This document shows, one piece after another, positions 15,968-24,955 of a stretch of DNA of 43,121 bases. The notes below the pieces were generated by a model, which was given only the letters and a program-made list of their open reading frames with translations, did no database searches and was not told the origin of the DNA. Origin of the DNA: a virus (taxonomy: Duplodnaviria > Heunggongvirae > Uroviricota > Caudoviricetes); IMG/VR virus record IMGVR_UViG_2529292921_000020; one strand, given 5' to 3'. Both the position numbers and the translations under genes were made by a program. Each line of letters opens with the position of its first letter. Position 1 is the first letter of the stretch.

Positions 15968-16327
15968 ATGCTCATAGATTTGGTTTTACCTTACCCGCCG
16001 ACGGTGAACACTTACTGGCGACGCCGTGGCAGCACATATTTTGTATCAAAAGTCGGTGAGCGTTATCGCCGTGATGTGGCGCTTATTGTTCGCCAGCAGC
16101 AACTGAAATTAAACCTGTCCGGAAGGCCGGCAATAGAAATTATTGCAGAGCCACCGGATAAGCGCCGTCGTGACCTGGACAATATCCTGAAGGCACCACT
16201 GGATGTACTGACGCATGCGGGGCTGCTCATAGACGACGAGCAGTTTGATGAAATTAATATTGTGCGCGGTCAGCTTGTTCCTGGTGGGCGGTTGGGGATA
16301 AAAATCACAGAACTGGAGTATGCATGA
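15968..16327 (+). CDS. rusA: Holliday junction resolvase RusA
   Basis: 119-aa ORF; conserved RusA motifs (RRRDLDNILKA, LIDDEQ, GGRLGIKITE). Confidence 0.85.
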   Translation: MLIDLVLPYPPTVNTYWRRRGSTYFVSKVGERYRRDVALIVRQQQLKLNLSGRPAIEIIAEPPDKRRRDLDNILKAPLDVLTHAGLLIDDEQFDEINIVRGQLVPGGRLGIKITELEYA

Positions 16328-17013
16328 ATAACCAGTATTTACAGTTTGTTCGTGAGCAACTCATGATTGCCACCGCCGATTTGAGTGGATCAACAAAAGG
16401 GCAGCTTGAGGCCTGGCAGGAGAATGCCATGTTTGATACAGGGCGTTACAGGCGTAAAAAAATCCGGTACCGCGATGAAGTGACTGGAAAAATGATAACG
16501 CGGGATAATCCACCAATCCCGGGAAAGCAATCGCTGGCGAAGGGGGCGTCAATTCCTCTCGTCAGTCCGGTTGAGTTTTTGACATCATCGTGGCGGCGGG
16601 CTGTTCTGTCTCTTGAAGAACATCATAAAGCCTGGTTGTTGTGGTGTTACAGCGGGAGTATTTGTTGGGAATATCAGATCGCGATAACACAGTGGGCGTG
16701 GAATGAATTTAATACTCAATCCGGTACCAGAAAAATTGCTGGGAAAACGCAGGAACGCCTGAAAAAATTAATCTGGCTGGCGGCGCAGGCAGTAAAAGCA
16801 GAACTTTTTGGTGGGGAAGGTTATGAATATCAGGAGCTGGCATTACTGGCGGGAGTGACAACTAAAAACTGGTCCAAAACATTTACTCGTCACTGGGTTG
16901 CAATGAAACACATTTTTCACCGACTGGATAGTGAGGCTTTATTATTTGTAATGAGAACACGTTCAAAACAAAAGGCGGCATTTTCAAAGCAAAGTGTTGC
17001 AAAAGTAGATTGA
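16324..17013 (+). CDS. Late-gene antitermination protein Q-like
   Basis: 229-aa ORF directly after rusA and before the promoter, terminator and tRNA-lysis region, the canonical Q position; family assigned by synteny. Confidence 0.6.
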   Translation: MNNQYLQFVREQLMIATADLSGSTKGQLEAWQENAMFDTGRYRRKKIRYRDEVTGKMITRDNPPIPGKQSLAKGASIPLVSPVEFLTSSWRRAVLSLEEHHKAWLLWCYSGSICWEYQIAITQWAWNEFNTQSGTRKIAGKTQERLKKLIWLAAQAVKAELFGGEGYEYQELALLAGVTTKNWSKTFTRHWVAMKHIFHRLDSEALLFVMRTRSKQKAAFSKQSVAKVD

Positions 17014-17576: not shown

Positions 17577-19148
17577 TTACTGAGAGCTCAGATCAACTTT
17601 CCAGGGCAACAGATCGCGTACCCGGTTTGCCGGCCAGTCCTGGATATGTTCAATGACGTAACGCAGCCACTTTTCTGGCTCCACATTGTTCAGACGGCAT
17701 GTGCCGATCAGCGAGTACAACACCGCCGCATGTTCACCACCGCTGTCGGAACCCGCGAACATCCAGTTTTTCCGGCCTACGGCCACTCCCCGTAAGGCGT
17801 TCTCTGCGATGTTGTTGTCGATTTCCACCCAGCCATTACTGCAGTACACGTTCAGTGCATCCCACTGTTTCAGCAGGTATGCGAACGCTTTTGCCGTATC
17901 TGAGTGACGCGACAGTGTTTTCATCTGTTGCTGTATCCAGTCATACAGTGACTGCATCAGTGGCGCGGCTCTGGCTTTTCTTGCCGCCAGACGCTGTTCT
18001 GCTGAACAGCACCGGACCTCTGCCTCGATGGCATACAGTTCACCGATACGCTGCAGGGCTTCCGTGGTGATGTAGGTGGGCGCTCTTGCATGCACATCGT
18101 GGATTTTTCTCCGGGCATGAGCCATACACGCGGCTTCCGTTATTCTGCCGGATTCGTATAACGCCCGGTAACCACCGTAAGCATCGGCCTGAAGCACACC
18201 GCTGTAACCGGCCAGGTGATTTTGTGGATGGATACCTTTCCGGTCCGGACTGTACGCGAACCAGACCGCCGGGGGCATCTGTGAACCGGCGTTACGGTCA
18301 TCACGGACGTAGACCCACAGCCGGGCTGTCCGGGTTTTACCGCTGCCCGGCTCCTGGACCGGGACGGGGATATCATCAGCATGGACTTTACCGGGCATCA
18401 GCACATACTGGCGCAGGACGTCATACAGCGGCTCCAGCAGTTCAGCAACAGCACCTGTCCAGCGCCCCAGTGTGGCACGGCTCAGCTCCACGCCCTGACG
18501 ACGGTATATTTCTGACTGGCGGTATAACGGCAGATGGTCTGCATATTTCCCGGTGACAACATGGGCCAGAAGCCCCGCTCCGGCATAACTGCGTGCAATG
18601 GGTTTTGAAGGTACTGGTGCCTGCACGATATGGTCGCACCGGCAACAGGCCTGTTTCGGACGTTGTGTTTCGATAACCTTAAAGGCGCTGCTGATAAGCT
18701 CCAGTTGCTCTGACACATCACATCCCAGAGAACTGAGTTCACCACCACAGGCAGGACAGCATTCCTCTTCCGGCCGGATAACCCGGGTTTCACGGGGAAG
18801 TGAGGCCGGTAACGGTTTACGGGCTGAAGACTGGCGCAGGGCGGATGGCAGTACCGGGTCATATTGCTCACCCAGCGTTTCCGCCATTTCTTCCTGAAGT
18901 GCGCTGATTCGCTCCTGTGCTTCCTGTATCTGCCGTTCGGTTTTTGCACGAAGTTTTTCTGAGCTTTTACCGAACTGCATACGTTGCAGTTTCGCAACCA
19001 GCGCCTTCAGCCGGTTGATTTCGGAAGCATAAGCCGCCACCCGCTGTGAGAGCAGGCGGTTGTATTCAGCCATCTGGCGGATGGTGTCCTGTTGCGTCTG
19101 CAACAGTGCCCGCAGGCGGGCGTTCTCATGAGCAAGTGAGGTGTCCAT
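17577..19148 (-). CDS. IS66-family transposase (TnpC)
   Basis: 523-aa ORF with N-terminal coiled coil, Cys-rich zinc-binding region and DDE core typical of IS66 transposases. Confidence 0.85.
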
Positions 19149-19167
19149 ATCCTCACTTTACAACGGG

Positions 19168-19515
19168 TTATATGCGGATTCCAGCGCGTTCCGTTCGTTT
19201 CGGGTGCTTCCAGTTGATACCTTCAAGAAGCATGGATAACTGAGCCGGAGTAAGGTGCACCTTGCCGTCACGGGTGACTGGCCAGACGAAGCGGCCCCGC
19301 TCCAGGCGTTTGGTGAAGAGGCACAGTCCGTCACTGTCAGCCCACAACACTTTTATCTGGTCACCCCGGCGTCCGCGGAAGATGAACAGGTGTCCGGAGA
19401 ACGGGTCATCCTTCAGGACGTTCTGAACTTTTGATGCCAGGCCGTTAAAGCCATTTCGCATATCGGTGATACCTGCAACCAGCCAGATACGCGAACCTGC
19501 AGGGAGAGATATCAT
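19168..19515 (-). CDS. IS66 accessory protein TnpB (Orf2)
   Basis: 115-aa ORF MISLPAGSRIWLVAGITDMRNGFNGL..., characteristic IS66 Orf2. Confidence 0.8.
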   Translation of the reverse strand: MISLPAGSRIWLVAGITDMRNGFNGLASKVQNVLKDDPFSGHLFIFRGRRGDQIKVLWADSDGLCLFTKRLERGRFVWPVTRDGKVHLTPAQLSMLLEGINWKHPKRTERAGIRI

Positions 19516-20192
19516 CAGTGGCTGCTCCCTTTTATTTCGCGGATAAGTGTCTGTAATAACGCCGGCGTCAGTTTACCTTTAAGCCTGAGAGTTCCGGCCG
19601 GCAGAACCAGCTCACAACACAGACTGTCGGACGGTGTATTTATCTGCTCTGGTTCCTGTGCGGGGGCCGGGATTTTATTATCCGGCTCCGGCGTTAACGT
19701 CACGGGAAGCAGTGCCGGCATATTTTTTCCGGAAGGCAGCAGGCCACCTTTCCGGTATTGATGGCGCCAGTTGAAGAGCAGGTTATCGTTGATTCCGTTT
19801 TCCCGGGCGATCTGCGCCACACAGGCTCCGGGCTGCAGTGACTGCTCCACTAAGGCGATTTTAAACTCATAAGGGAAGTTGGGCCGCCGGGGACGTTTTT
19901 TTACCACGGGGGCTTCGGATATAACGGTGCTTTCAGGACGTACGACTGGTACCGTGGAAAATTGTCCGTAAAGGCAGGCATCAAGTTCCTGCTCCGACAT
20001 GCCTGCGGGCAAAGGCCACGAAAGGCCAGCTCTCCGAAAGCGCACGAACATACTACAAACTGTTGATTTTGGTACACCCAGGCGACGCCCGGCCACAACC
20101 CGGGGTAAATGTTCTTCAAAGTGAAGACGTAAAGCTTCAGTGATCCAGGTCCGGTGTTTCATACGATAGTGTCCATTAAAAATGATGGACAT
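19515..20192 (-). CDS. IS66 accessory protein TnpA (Orf1)
   Basis: 225-aa ORF with N-terminal HTH, first gene of the IS66 operon, coupled to TnpB. Confidence 0.7.
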   Translation of the reverse strand: MSIIFNGHYRMKHRTWITEALRLHFEEHLPRVVAGRRLGVPKSTVCSMFVRFRRAGLSWPLPAGMSEQELDACLYGQFSTVPVVRPESTVISEAPVVKKRPRRPNFPYEFKIALVEQSLQPGACVAQIARENGINDNLLFNWRHQYRKGGLLPSGKNMPALLPVTLTPEPDNKIPAPAQEPEQINTPSDSLCCELVLPAGTLRLKGKLTPALLQTLIREIKGSSH

Positions 20193-20646: not shown

Positions 20647-22500
20647 ATGGCATTTAAATACTATGATGTTGTCAGGGCGGCGTCGCCGTCAGACCTTGCG
20701 GAAAAGCTGACACATAAACTGAAAGAGGGCTGGCAGCCGTTTGGTAGTCCGGTGGCCATAACCCCTTATACCCTGATGCAGGCGATTGCAGCAGAAGGTG
20801 ATGTGGTCGTCAGTGGTGCAACTGAGCCGGACTGGTTCTACGTGGTTGTGCTTGCCGGACAGTCCAACGGCATGGCCTACGGTGAAGGGCTTCCGTTACC
20901 GGATTCTTACGATGCTCCGGATCCGCGCATTAAACAGCTGGCGCGCCGCAGCACGGTAACTCCGGGTGGAGAGAGTTGTACGTATAACGACATCATCCCG
21001 GCTGACCACTGTCTGCATGATGTGCAGGATATGAGTACGCTGAATCATCCGAAGGCAGACCTGAGCAAAGGGCAGTACGGCTGTGTCGGCCAGGGCTTAC
21101 ATATTGCCAAAAAACTGCTCCCGTATATCCCGAATAACGCGGGGATCCTGCTGGTACCATGCTGTCGTGGTGGTTCGGCATTCACCCAGGGCGCGGAGGG
21201 GACATTCAGTGCGGACGCGGGGGCCAGCCAGGATTCGGCGCGCTGGGGGGTGGGTAAACCGTTATATCAGGACCTGATTGCGCGCACTAAAGCTGCATTA
21301 CAGAAGAACCCGAAAAATGTGTTGCTGGCGGTGTGCTGGATGCAGGGAGAGTTTGACATGAGCGCCGCCACCTACGCACAGCAACCTGCGCTGTTTACAG
21401 CCATGCTGAAGCAGTTTCGTGCTGACCTCACTGTGTTTAACGCGCAGTGTCATGGTGGCAGTGCTGTAAATGTGCCGTGGATTTGTGGTGACACGACGTA
21501 TTACTGGAAAAATACATACGCTACCCAGTACGACACCGTGTACGGCGGGTATAAAAACAGGGAGAGTGAGGGCGTTTATTTTGTGCCCTTCATGACAGAC
21601 GGTAACGGCGTCAATACCGCCACTAACGCACCGGCAGAAGATCCGGATATTCCGGCATCAGGATATTACGGTGCGGCATCGAGAACGAATGGAAACCAGG
21701 TATCATCAAACCGCCCGACACATTTCAGTTCATGGGCGCGCAGGAGCATTATTCCGGATCGTATGGCAACCGCTATTCTGAACGCAGCCGGGCGCACCTC
21801 AGCTTTCATCAGTGGTAAGGCACCGGAAATCAAACCCTCGCCCGGCGGCAACACGCCATCGGGGCCGTCTGAAGATGCATCCGTACGCACAATCTCCCTG
21901 TTGCCGACAGCCGGAGAGGCTGCTGCGCAGGGCTGGACCATTAAGGACGGCGGAATTCAGTTGTCGGGTGGTGTATTTAAGATCGCCAAGCAGAGCAATA
22001 AAACCTGGTCCCTGATGCATCCGGTGGATGACGCAGTCTCCCTGCTGACACGGGGTGGCAGACTGAGCTGTAAGTTTCGACTGTCAGGCGCACTGACCAA
22101 CAACCAGTTCGGCCTGGGAATTTATCTGTATACCGATGTAGCGTTACCTGACGTCGTGGCGATGACCGGGACTGGTAACCCGTTCCTGATGTCGTTCTTC
22201 ACCCAGACCACAGACGGCAAACTGAATCTGATGCATCACAAGAAAGCAGGAAACACAAAGTTGGGCGAGTTCGGGAATTACAGTAATGACTGGCAGACGC
22301 TGGAACTGGTGTTCACCGCCGGCAGTGCCACGGTTACTCCGAAACTGAATGGAGTGGCTGGCCCGGCATTCCAGGTCATAAAAGACAGTCTGACACTGGG
22401 GCTGAATGCGCTGACGCTGACGGATATTACCAAAAATGCAGCGTATGGCGTTGAGATAGAAAGTCTGGTGCTGGAGATAAATGCACCGGCATCATCATAA
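20647..22500 (+). CDS. nanS: Phage NanS-p-like sialate O-acetylesterase (DUF1737 N-terminus plus SGNH-type hydrolase)
   Basis: 617-aa ORF; N-terminus MAFKYYDVVRAASPSDLAEKL..., esterase block VVLAGQSNGMAYGEG; sits downstream of the Q-tRNA region where Stx phages carry this gene after stxAB. Confidence 0.7.
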   Translation: MAFKYYDVVRAASPSDLAEKLTHKLKEGWQPFGSPVAITPYTLMQAIAAEGDVVVSGATEPDWFYVVVLAGQSNGMAYGEGLPLPDSYDAPDPRIKQLARRSTVTPGGESCTYNDIIPADHCLHDVQDMSTLNHPKADLSKGQYGCVGQGLHIAKKLLPYIPNNAGILLVPCCRGGSAFTQGAEGTFSADAGASQDSARWGVGKPLYQDLIARTKAALQKNPKNVLLAVCWMQGEFDMSAATYAQQPALFTAMLKQFRADLTVFNAQCHGGSAVNVPWICGDTTYYWKNTYATQYDTVYGGYKNRESEGVYFVPFMTDGNGVNTATNAPAEDPDIPASGYYGAASRTNGNQVSSNRPTHFSSWARRSIIPDRMATAILNAAGRTSAFISGKAPEIKPSPGGNTPSGPSEDASVRTISLLPTAGEAAAQGWTIKDGGIQLSGGVFKIAKQSNKTWSLMHPVDDAVSLLTRGGRLSCKFRLSGALTNNQFGLGIYLYTDVALPDVVAMTGTGNPFLMSFFTQTTDGKLNLMHHKKAGNTKLGEFGNYSNDWQTLELVFTAGSATVTPKLNGVAGPAFQVIKDSLTLGLNALTLTDITKNAAYGVEIESLVLEINAPASS

Positions 22501-22650
22501 AAAGTGAGCCAGCCAAATGGAAGGTATCGTTAAACTCACCGGTAGTGTCAGTGGGTCGTCTGAGATGCCTGCATGAGTTATCAGAGCCATCAGTACTTAA
22601 CTGGTGGCTTTTTTTATTGTTGTCAGCTTCCGGATAACGGGAGACGGGGT

Positions 22651-22866
22651 ATGGACCAGATGGAAAAAATCACAACAGGTGTGTCATACACCACGTCAGC
22701 GGTGGGAACGGGCTACTGGTTCCTGCAGTTGCTGGACAGGGTTTCCCCGTCTCAGTGGGCGGCAATAGGCGTGCTGGGGAGTCTGCTGTTTGGGCTGCTG
22801 ACATATCTGACTAACCTGTATTTCAAAATCAGAGAGGACCGTCGTAAGGCGGCACGGGGAGAGTAA
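22651..22866 (+). CDS. S: Pinholin (S21-like class II holin), possible dual start MDQM
   Basis: About 71 aa with two TM segments and charged C-terminus (...[22 protein letters not shown]); ORF-track N-terminal extension overlaps a terminator-like hairpin, so the start is placed at 22651 or 22660. Confidence 0.8.
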
Positions 22867-22870
22867 TTCA

Positions 22871-23221
22871 ATGACTCAAAACTATGAACTGATTGTGAAA
22901 GGGATCCGCAATTTTGAGAATAAAGTTACGGTAACTTTAGCGTTACGGGACAAAAAACGCTTTGACGGTGAAATTTTTGACCTGGACATCTCGCTGGACC
23001 GTGTTGAAGGTGCCGCGCTGGAGTTTTATGAGGCAGCAGCCAGAAGGAGCATCAGACAGGTCTTCCTGGATGTTGCTGCCGGGTTATGTGAAGGGGATGA
23101 GCAGTCGCCGGAAAAGCGCCCCGTAATTTTAGAGGCGCAGAATGTATGGATAACCTACAAAGGAAAGCTACCGGGAAGAATTACTGGTTCTCTGAAGACT
23201 CCTCCGGAATCACAACCTTAA
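22871..23221 (+). CDS. Hypothetical protein between holin and endolysin
   Basis: 116-aa ORF tightly packed after S. Confidence 0.4.
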   Translation: MTQNYELIVKGIRNFENKVTVTLALRDKKRFDGEIFDLDISLDRVEGAALEFYEAAARRSIRQVFLDVAAGLCEGDEQSPEKRPVILEAQNVWITYKGKLPGRITGSLKTPPESQP

Positions 23222-23284: not shown

Positions 23285-23818
23285 ATGAACGCAAAAATCA
23301 GATACGGCCTGTCGGCTGCCGTTCTGGCGCTGATTGCCGCTGGTGCGCCTGCGCCTGACATTCTCGACCAGTTTCTGGATGAAAAGGAAGGTAACCACAC
23401 CACGGCATACCGTGATGGCGCGGGTATCTGGACCATCTGCCGCGGTGCCATCCTGGTGGATGGCAAACCTGTCGTTCCGGGCATGAAGTTGTCGAAGGAA
23501 AAATGCGACCGGGTTAACGCCATTGAGCGTGATAAGGCGCTGGCATGGGTGGAGAAAAACATCAAAGTGCCATTGACCGAACCCCAGAAAGCGGGGATCG
23601 CGTCATTCTGTCCGTACAACATTGGTCCCGGTAAGTGTTTCCCGTCGACGTTTTACAGACGAATTAATGCAGGTGATCGCAGGGGAGCATGCGAAGCGAT
23701 TCGCTGGTGGATTAAGGACGGTGGCAGAGACTGCCGTATTCGCTCAAATAACTGTTACGGTCAGGTATTCCGTCGTGACCAGGAGAGCGCGCTGGCGTGC
23801 TGGGGAATCGACAGATAA
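23285..23818 (+). CDS. R: SAR-endolysin (phage lysozyme, R21-like)
   Basis: 177-aa ORF; N-terminal signal-anchor-release segment (LSAAVLALIAAGAPA) followed by lysozyme catalytic region (E...D...T context). Confidence 0.85.
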   Translation: MNAKIRYGLSAAVLALIAAGAPAPDILDQFLDEKEGNHTTAYRDGAGIWTICRGAILVDGKPVVPGMKLSKEKCDRVNAIERDKALAWVEKNIKVPLTEPQKAGIASFCPYNIGPGKCFPSTFYRRINAGDRRGACEAIRWWIKDGGRDCRIRSNNCYGQVFRRDQESALACWGIDR

Positions 23819-23910
23819 GCAGAATATTTTGCTGAAAAATGAGGTTGGCCAACGCGGGCGGATAACACGAAGTCCTGTGAACTGGCAAAACCTAAGTGAA
23901 TAAAAGTAAA

Positions 23911-23947
23911 AACCCCGTTTGTTGGCAGCAAGCGGGGTTTTGTTTTT
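23911..23947 (+). terminator. Terminator-like GC hairpin with T-run downstream of R
   Basis: AACCCCGTTTGTTGGCAGCAAGCGGGGTTTTGTTTTT. Confidence 0.5.
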
Positions 23948-24012
23948 ATGGCAGTAAGCTATGGGAGGCTGCCTTGATTGATTTTAGCAAACTGATTAGG
24001 GAGTTGCGACTC

Positions 24013-24459
24013 ATGATTAGTCAATTACCAAACTGGAAATTTTTGCTGGTCTGGAGCATCCCTTTTTTATGGGTAGTATCCCAGTTAATTGTGGCAATTA
24101 AGGGGTAGCTATGTCAGACAAACTCATAACGCCGGCAAAGGTCCTGTGTGTGATTGTCGGTATTTCATTTTCACTAATGCTGGTTGCTCTTTTTCTGTCC
24201 CTCGCCTGGGTGATGTTGTCTTCGTCGGGGCTGCTGGGGTGACAGTGACTGATGACATCAGCAGAGCGCTGGCTTTTGCTATTAAGTGGGTGGCTGTTGG
24301 TATTGCTGTGTCTCCGATGCTGTATGGGCTGGCAAAACTGGTCATTGCGCTGAAATCGTGAACTTTAAAAAGATGAGTGCTGAACTTATTCGGGCAATGG
24401 CATTTGCCATTCGTATTGTGGCCATTGCTGTTCTGGTCTGGGCAATCCGTTGGTGGTGA
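24013..24459 (+). other. Tandem array of four small hydrophobic peptide ORFs (24013-24108, 24111-24242, 24245-24361, 24373-24459; 31, 43, 38 and 28 aa)
   Basis: Back-to-back ORFs each encoding one predicted TM helix; ORF3 (TDDISRALAFAIKWVAVGIAV...) and ORF4 ([20 protein letters not shown]...) are clearly paralogous; ORF2 begins MSDKLI. Confidence 0.4.
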
Positions 24460-24460
24460 T

Positions 24461-24955
24461 ATGAACCGTGTTCTGTGTGTGGTGATTATTGTCATGCTGG
24501 TAGCCTGTGGTGTGCTTAGTCTGGGGCTGAATCATTACCGCGATAACGCCATCACCTACAAAGCGCAGCGCGATAAAAAAGTCAGTGAGCTGAAACTGGC
24601 GAATGCCACTATTACTGACATGCAGCAGCGCCAGCGAGATGTCGCTGCGCTTGATGCCAGATACACGAAGGAATTAGCCGATGCGAGAGCTGAAAATGAA
24701 ACTCTGCGCGCTGATGTTGCCGCTGGTCGTAAGCGCCTGCGGGTCAACGCCACCTGCCCCGGTACCGTGCGTGAAGCCACCGGCACCTCCAGCGTGGATA
24801 ATGCAACCGGCCCCCGACTGGCAGACACCGCTGAACGGGATTATTTCATCCTCAGAGAACGGTTGATGACAATGCAGAAGCAGCTGGAAGGGGCGCAGGA
24901 ATATATCCGCACTCAGTGCACTAAGCTGGCTTTTTATTATCCGGAGGATACATGA
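24461..24955 (+). CDS. Rz: Spanin inner-membrane subunit Rz
   Basis: About 165 aa from [19 protein letters not shown]-terminal TM then coiled-coil periplasmic domain; Rz1 is embedded in the +1 frame. Confidence 0.8.
24696..24866 (+). CDS. Rz1: Spanin outer-membrane lipoprotein subunit Rz1 (embedded in Rz)
   Basis: [15 protein letters not shown] lipobox followed by a Pro-rich mature peptide, entirely within the Rz coding region. Confidence 0.75.

Follow-up and report, generated by a model that had tools for sequence, protein, structure and literature searches.

The holin gene of the phage 21 S family that we analysed opens with two closely spaced methionine codons but lacks the basic residue that separates them in most of its relatives. 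On balance we favour the reading that the gene carries an inherited phage-21-type dual start from which two isoforms are probably made, and that the charge-based antiholin switch has been lost. This reading draws on the observed homology, the conservation of the methionine pair, the missing basic residue and the geometry of the Shine-Dalgarno (SD) elements, from which we infer start use and function. The gene belongs to the late genes of a lambdoid prophage and lies within a stretch of DNA of 43,121 nucleotides that was analysed as a whole and is referred to below as the window.

The holin gene and its genomic setting

Positions 22651-22662 of the plus strand read ATG GAC CAG ATG (Met-Asp-Gln-Met), in frame with an open reading frame of 71 codons that ends at position 22866. 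An earlier note on this DNA had pointed to two methionine codons at this site with two codons between them, and had remarked that the intervening residues are Asp-Gln rather than a basic residue. Coordinates and residues are correct, and the second observation became the key point of the present analysis. Read from the first start (AUG1), the S-type pinholin gene (22651..22866, plus strand) encodes a protein of 71 amino acids that begins MDQMEK. RefSeq annotates the identical gene from ATG1 as a class II holin family protein (WP_000372595.1). Read from the second start (AUG2, Met4; 22660..22866, plus strand), the gene would encode a protein of 68 amino acids, which positional homology with Met4 of P21-type S identifies as the equivalent of S21-68.

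The assignment to the pinholin family, which the note had also made, is borne out by a match to PF04971 ('Bacteriophage P21 holin S') that covers residues 5-67 of 71 with an E-value of 9e-33 and 112.5 bits, against a cut-off of 26 bits, and by the pairing of the gene with a SAR-type lysozyme. The protein also matches PHROG holin families. Members of the P21 holin S family form small heptameric channels that depolarise the membrane. The first hydrophobic segment of the window holin begins at about residue 8. In a sequence-level test, residues 8-28 had a mean Kyte-Doolittle value of 0.53 and consisted to 52% of Gly, Ala, Ser or Thr, which characterizes this segment as weakly hydrophobic and SAR-like. 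Residues 36-56 (mean value of 1.55) include the stretch GVLGSLLFG with Gly-x3-Gly spacing and form a clearly hydrophobic second segment. At the same level, the protein fits the typical pinholin layout of about 70 amino acids with two hydrophobic segments and a charged C-terminal tail.

Downstream of the motif, the genes follow the order of a lambdoid late-gene lysis cassette, that is, S, DUF1327, SAR-type lysozyme and Rz/Rz1. The DUF1327/YdfR-family reading frame between S and R (22871..23221, plus strand; PF07041, E-value of 7.5e-43; RefSeq YdfR family) matches PHROGs of unknown function; in the IMG/VR sample it follows the Met-Asp-Gln (MDQ) allele of the holin gene in 9/9 cases and the Met-Tyr-Gln (MYQ) allele in 38/90. 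The endolysin gene R (23285..23818, plus strand; PF00959, E-value of 9.3e-24) encodes a SAR-like N terminus, whose Gly/Ala-rich hydrophobic stretch IRYGLSAAVLALIAAGAPAP consists to 50% of Gly, Ala, Ser or Thr, and an E-x8-D-x5-T motif that begins at residue 35. As judged from these features, the arrangement of a pinholin with a SAR endolysin is that of the Stx phages, whose S proteins are P21-family pinholins paired with SAR endolysins (PMC8136144; PMC10462455). The gene for the i-spanin Rz (24461..24955, plus strand; PF03245, E-value of 7.2e-51) lies in a 192-residue reading frame that opens with a GTG at position 24377; the PF03245 match begins at residue 57 of this frame, and the likely start of Rz is the Met codon at 24461. 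The gene for the o-spanin Rz1 (24681..24866, plus strand; PF06085, E-value of 1.7e-21) is embedded in Rz.

A gap of about 640 nt (23819-24460) separates the lysozyme gene from the probable Rz start and contains several small hydrophobic open reading frames (23896-24108, 24111-24242, 24089-24361 and 24286-24459). These match PHROGs of unknown function (phrog_6632, 4906, 3246 with an E-value of 4e-59, and 4493), and a Pfam search of the frames between 23896 and 24459 yielded no match. They may encode small additional membrane proteins of this cassette and, should the dual start have ceased to provide an antiholin, would be candidates for that role.

Upstream of S lie the gene for the antiterminator Q (16324-17013), followed by three tRNA genes, and a gene for a SASA/NanS-p-like esterase (20647-22500). 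Between the tRNA cluster and the esterase gene, an IS66-family element on the minus strand with TnpC, TnpB and TnpA reading frames (17577-20192) fills the slot that stx takes up in Stx phages; the window carries no stx gene. The closest matches among complete genomes carry other IS elements in this slot, for example ISEc13 in E2348/69. A prophage of this strain is the best match among complete E. coli genomes (100% identity over 70% of 9 kb), and none of the matches is full-length.

The interval that separates the esterase gene from S contains a strong intrinsic-terminator-like hairpin with a 12-bp stem (22583-22611), followed by a T-run (22583..22617 in total, plus strand). It lies only about 35 nt ahead of the holin start, and late transcription has to pass it, presumably by Q antitermination. 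No Rfam family was detected between positions 21500 and 24000, and no credible feature on the opposite strand overlaps the motif site. An extended reading of the holin gene, as a 97-residue frame from the ATG at 22573, was rejected, as it runs through the terminator hairpin and has no SD element, and as the relatives all differ in the length of this in-frame extension; one phage record carries a comparable annotation of 106 amino acids.

Conservation of the methionine pair and the missing basic residue

We read the start DNA directly, independently of gene calling, in 74 related loci, with one genome per species. Two closely spaced Met codons were present in 71/74 loci. Conservation of M1 and M4 reaches at least 90% across the family protein alignment, in which the window protein shares 77-80% identity with P21-type S and aligns with it at both positions. 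A Met at residue 4 is found by chance in about 2% of reading frames (16 of 833 distinct frames of at least 150 amino acids from the window and the fetched loci), so that a fortuitous pair devoid of evolutionary or functional meaning can in principle arise. Such a chance pairing is contradicted by the conservation of both Mets across the family, which extends over the 74 loci and many enterobacterial genera and includes a type member with an experimentally described dual start; we consider it extremely improbable. As judged from the alignment, the Met-x-x-Met of the window is the evolutionary counterpart of the Met1/Met4 pair in phage 21 S.

According to two secondary sources, phage 21 S gives rise to the antiholin S21-71 and the holin S21-68 from Met1 and Met4, respectively, and the extra basic Lys of S21-71 restricts the release of its first helix from the membrane, which makes this form a temporary inhibitor (PMC9636201; PMC13056207). 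The window gene has in common with phage 21 S the PF04971 domain, the lengths of 71 and 68 amino acids, the Mets at positions 1 and 4, two tandem SD-like elements upstream, a weakly hydrophobic SAR-like first helix and a SAR endolysin partner. In contrast, the extension of phage 21 S is M-K-S with a charge of +1 in the tail of the long form, whereas that of the window is M-D-Q, without a basic residue and with a tail charge of -1.

The earlier note had likened the motif to the dual starts that produce holin and antiholin isoforms, with lambda S as its reference. The likeness itself stands, since the motif is the positional homologue of the proven Met1/Met4 pair of phage 21, but lambda S is the wrong comparator and phage 21 S the right one. 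Lambda S (S107/S105) likewise has two in-frame starts a few codons apart before the first transmembrane helix; however, it belongs to an unrelated protein family of class I with three helices and forms large holes rather than pinholes. Its motif is Met-Lys-Met, in which the Lys is essential to the inhibitor logic of S107, following the same charge principle (PMC6116005). Within the family studied here, a distant branch from Trabulsiella, Raoultella, Shimwellia, Sodalis and others (L049-L057, ~1495-1510) starts in the manner of lambda, with Met-Arg-Met or Met-Lys-Met, where a single codon instead of two separates the Mets, and a CCCC/GGGG hairpin precedes its start.

A Lys or Arg lies between the two Mets in 67/74 loci. 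The corresponding start types are MYRM (29 loci), MKSM (20 loci; the P21 type), MLRM (7 loci), MHRM (2 loci), M-R-M (7 loci) and M-K-M (2 loci), and MKSM, MYRM, MLRM and MHRM are the relatives of the dual-start motif at 22651..22662. Among the 74 loci, a basic residue is absent only from MYQM (3 loci), MDQM (1 locus, plus the window) and two odd cases. Its absence is confined to the Stx-phage/Qin clade that contains the window, in which the start reads MYQM, MDQM or MNQM. MYQM is found in VT1-Sakai, VT2-Sakai and other Stx phages, and MDQM in the window, E. coli ATCC 11775 and phage vB_EcoS-716R1. A published working definition of a dual start demands a basic residue between the starts (PMC9671378). 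Our literature search yielded neither a discussion of the missing basic residue in this clade nor an article on the start motif of S in Stx phages or Qin; the primary papers on phage 21, which lay outside this search, may mention the missing residue.

The nearest relatives of the window holin are the S proteins of Stx phages (VT2-Sakai, VT1-Sakai and 933W-type), which are 97-99% identical, have the same upstream SD region and likewise carry no basic residue. They differ from it at residue 2, which is Tyr in these proteins and Asp in the window, a single T-to-G change from Tyr to Asp, and the VT2-Sakai record describes its own S as similar to Qin S. An IMG/VR scan with fixed flanks and nine free bases gave 105 MYQ, 14 MDQ and 1 MNQ alleles among the first 120 contigs listed. 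Within this set the alleles differ solely at the first base of codon 2, codon 2 is never basic, and ATG1 is intact in 120/120 contigs.

In the window, the side chains give the N-terminal tail a net charge of -1 in the long form and of 0 in the short one, compared with +1 and 0, respectively, in the P21-type and MYRM genes. The extension of the window thus shifts the charge in the direction opposite to that of the known antiholins of phage 21 and lambda. With its positive side outside, the membrane potential works against the export of positive charge and in favour of that of negative charge, and for this reason Asp2 should help, not hinder, the exit of the first helix. Because the Met-Asp-Gln extension leaves the long form with one positive charge less than the short one, the charge switch would be lost, and the brake of the lysis timer is probably disabled or altered in the window allele. 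The same charge difference, together with relatives that lack ATG1 in 25-28 phage records of mostly Stx1a-converting type, speaks against the suggestion in the earlier note that the two starts yield a holin and an antiholin.

Could the long form nevertheless act as an inhibitor? A working phage-21-like pair, in which both starts are used and the 71-residue form delays lysis, for instance because a longer polar tail or the free amino terminus slows the exit of its first helix, would agree with the positional homology of the motif to the proven P21 dual start, the SD-like elements at both AUGs, the presence of ATG1 in 120/120 IMG/VR contigs listed and the label 'holin/antiholin component S' given by some depositors. 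However, these labels are automatic annotation, codon 2 varies between Tyr, Asp and Asn, relatives without ATG1 exist in Stx1a phages, and the tail charge of the long form lies below that of the short form, the reverse of the situation in P21 and lambda. Moreover, the literature credits inhibition to the basic residue (PMC9636201, PMC6116005, PMC13056207). The retention of ATG1 in all 120 contigs listed could reflect a selected role of the long form, but it carries little weight because these contigs are too similar to each other, and helix exit might be slowed by three extra residues with a free amino terminus even if none of them is Lys. Overall, we judge a functional antiholin pair of this kind to be unlikely.

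Under the favoured reading of an inherited dual start without the charge switch, the ancestral three-residue extension with its Lys or Arg would have slowed the exit of the first helix and made the long form an antiholin. The likely path to the present allele would then comprise a change of Arg to Gln in the Stx-phage/Qin clade, followed by the T-to-G change from Tyr to Asp in the MDQM allele. The 71- and 68-residue isoforms would both act as holins, with the short form as the sufficient effector, and the long isoform would at most shift lysis timing slightly. A more speculative variant, to which we assign a low probability, is that the dual start has been re-purposed: the first helix of the long isoform would exit the energised membrane faster than that of the short form, turning the long isoform into the pro-lysis form, and residue 2 (Tyr, Asp or Asn) would serve as a dial for lysis timing. 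If true, this dial would also set the timing of toxin release in Stx phages.

Ribosome-binding signals and use of the two starts

Each of the two AUGs is preceded by an SD-like element recognized by its pairing with the 16S tail. The first, GGGAG (22639..22643, plus strand), is located 7 nt before AUG1, and the second, GGGGT (22646..22650, plus strand), 9 nt before AUG2. In simple thermodynamic estimates, which underlie all SD energy and accessibility figures given here, GGGAGA pairs with the 16S tail at -6.9 kcal/mol, 6-7 nt before AUG1, and GGGGUA/CGGGGU pair at -6.1/-5.9 kcal/mol, 8-9 nt before AUG2. The estimated costs of opening the two elements are alike (4.5 kcal/mol for SD1 and 4.8 kcal/mol for SD2). 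P21-type genes share the two-element layout, with pairing energies of -10.2 kcal/mol for AUG1 and -5.6 kcal/mol for AUG2. Since each AUG has its own SD-like element at a workable spacing, products of 71 and 68 amino acids are both plausible, and by these estimates both AUGs look usable.

The same signals bear on whether a single start is used in vivo, most likely AUG1, which would yield a lone 71-residue holin and leave Met4 as an internal Met inherited from dual-start ancestors. The GGGAG element at the ideal distance of 7 nt from AUG1 is the marginally stronger of the two, and the RefSeq annotation begins at AUG1. Against this, the second element 8-9 nt before AUG2 is nearly equal in strength and accessibility, and the same SD layout is reported to give two products in phage 21, according to a secondary source (PMC9636201). 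In addition, a variant of the clade without ATG1 demonstrates that the AUG at codon 4 can serve as a start. We regard single-start use as possible, with a probability well below that of the two-isoform reading.

The variant in question reads ATA CAT CAG ATG and occurs in the 25-28 phage records mentioned above, as well as in one locus of E. albertii. Its leader is of another kind, with the sole good SD element 9-10 nt before the fourth codon. With ATA at codon 1 and the SD element placed for the AUG at codon 4, only the 68-residue protein can be made. The S proteins of this subset of Stx1a phages (for example Stx1a_10051 and YYZ-2008) are 90% identical to the window protein, belong to the same clade and have the same Met4-Glu-Lys short-form start; unlike the window gene, with its ATG at codon 1, they represent a natural single-start version. 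Their sequences suggest that the short form alone can serve in the clade.

A stem-loop over the SD element that apportions initiation between the starts belongs to the dual-start motif of the lambda and phage 21 kind. Folding predicts a 6-bp hairpin in the leader of the window gene (CUUCCG-GAUAA-CGGGAG; 22627..22643, plus strand; -7.4 kcal/mol), of which SD1 forms the 3' arm. The SD-containing hairpin is far weaker in the window than in the phage 21 type, with SD1 opening costs of 4.5 versus 12.6 kcal/mol; in the P21-type locus L024, SD1 is strongly sequestered (opening 12.6 versus 6.4 kcal/mol). SD occlusion in the window was no better than in shuffled upstream sequence (267/400 shuffles), and this test was significant only for the representatives of the P21 type (5/400) and of MLRM (4/400). 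Because occlusion does not rise above that of shuffled upstream sequence, we claim no regulatory hairpin in the window.

At the level of the family, a helix with the SD element as its 3' arm had 82.8% of cells paired, compared with 35-57% in slid-partner controls, a contrast that is inflated because the helix was read off the same sequences on which it was tested. Compensatory changes were seen in 4/7 pairs, and 0/500 shuffles reached the observed covariation score. RNAalifold, applied to a MAFFT alignment of 44 start regions, yielded no consensus fold, as the 5' arms do not line up with one another.

Occurrence and significance of the clade

The gene and its protein are ordinary and have been annotated before. 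The exact 65-nt stretch around the motif is present in 606 complete E. coli records, and the clade in 2,419/5,426 complete E. coli genomes (~45%), with a median of 2 copies per genome. The exact window protein is encoded on at least 1,000 contigs and in sequenced phages such as vB_EcoS-716R1, 733R4, 640R1 and 813R8. The 68-residue form has been called on 340 contigs; we did not use these gene calls as evidence for the short form, as ATG1 is intact in some of them and rearrangement junctions occur at the start in others, which renders them uninformative. In L206-L209, L211 and L212 (~585-600), rearrangement junctions fall no more than a few bases away from ATG1. Beyond these junctions, on the upstream side, lie a flgI gene, a gene for an ABC permease and an IS element; in two of the contigs the holin gene itself is partially duplicated. 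The junctions could mark a hot spot of recombination or insertion, or be assembly artefacts.

Dual-start holins are the textbook case of a timer protein that carries its own brake. A very common clade, which also comprises the S genes of most Stx phages, keeps the two starts but does so without the charge that defines the brake. If this clade is truly without antiholin control, or is controlled differently, this would bear on the timing of lysis in Stx phages, for which lysis is a route of toxin release.
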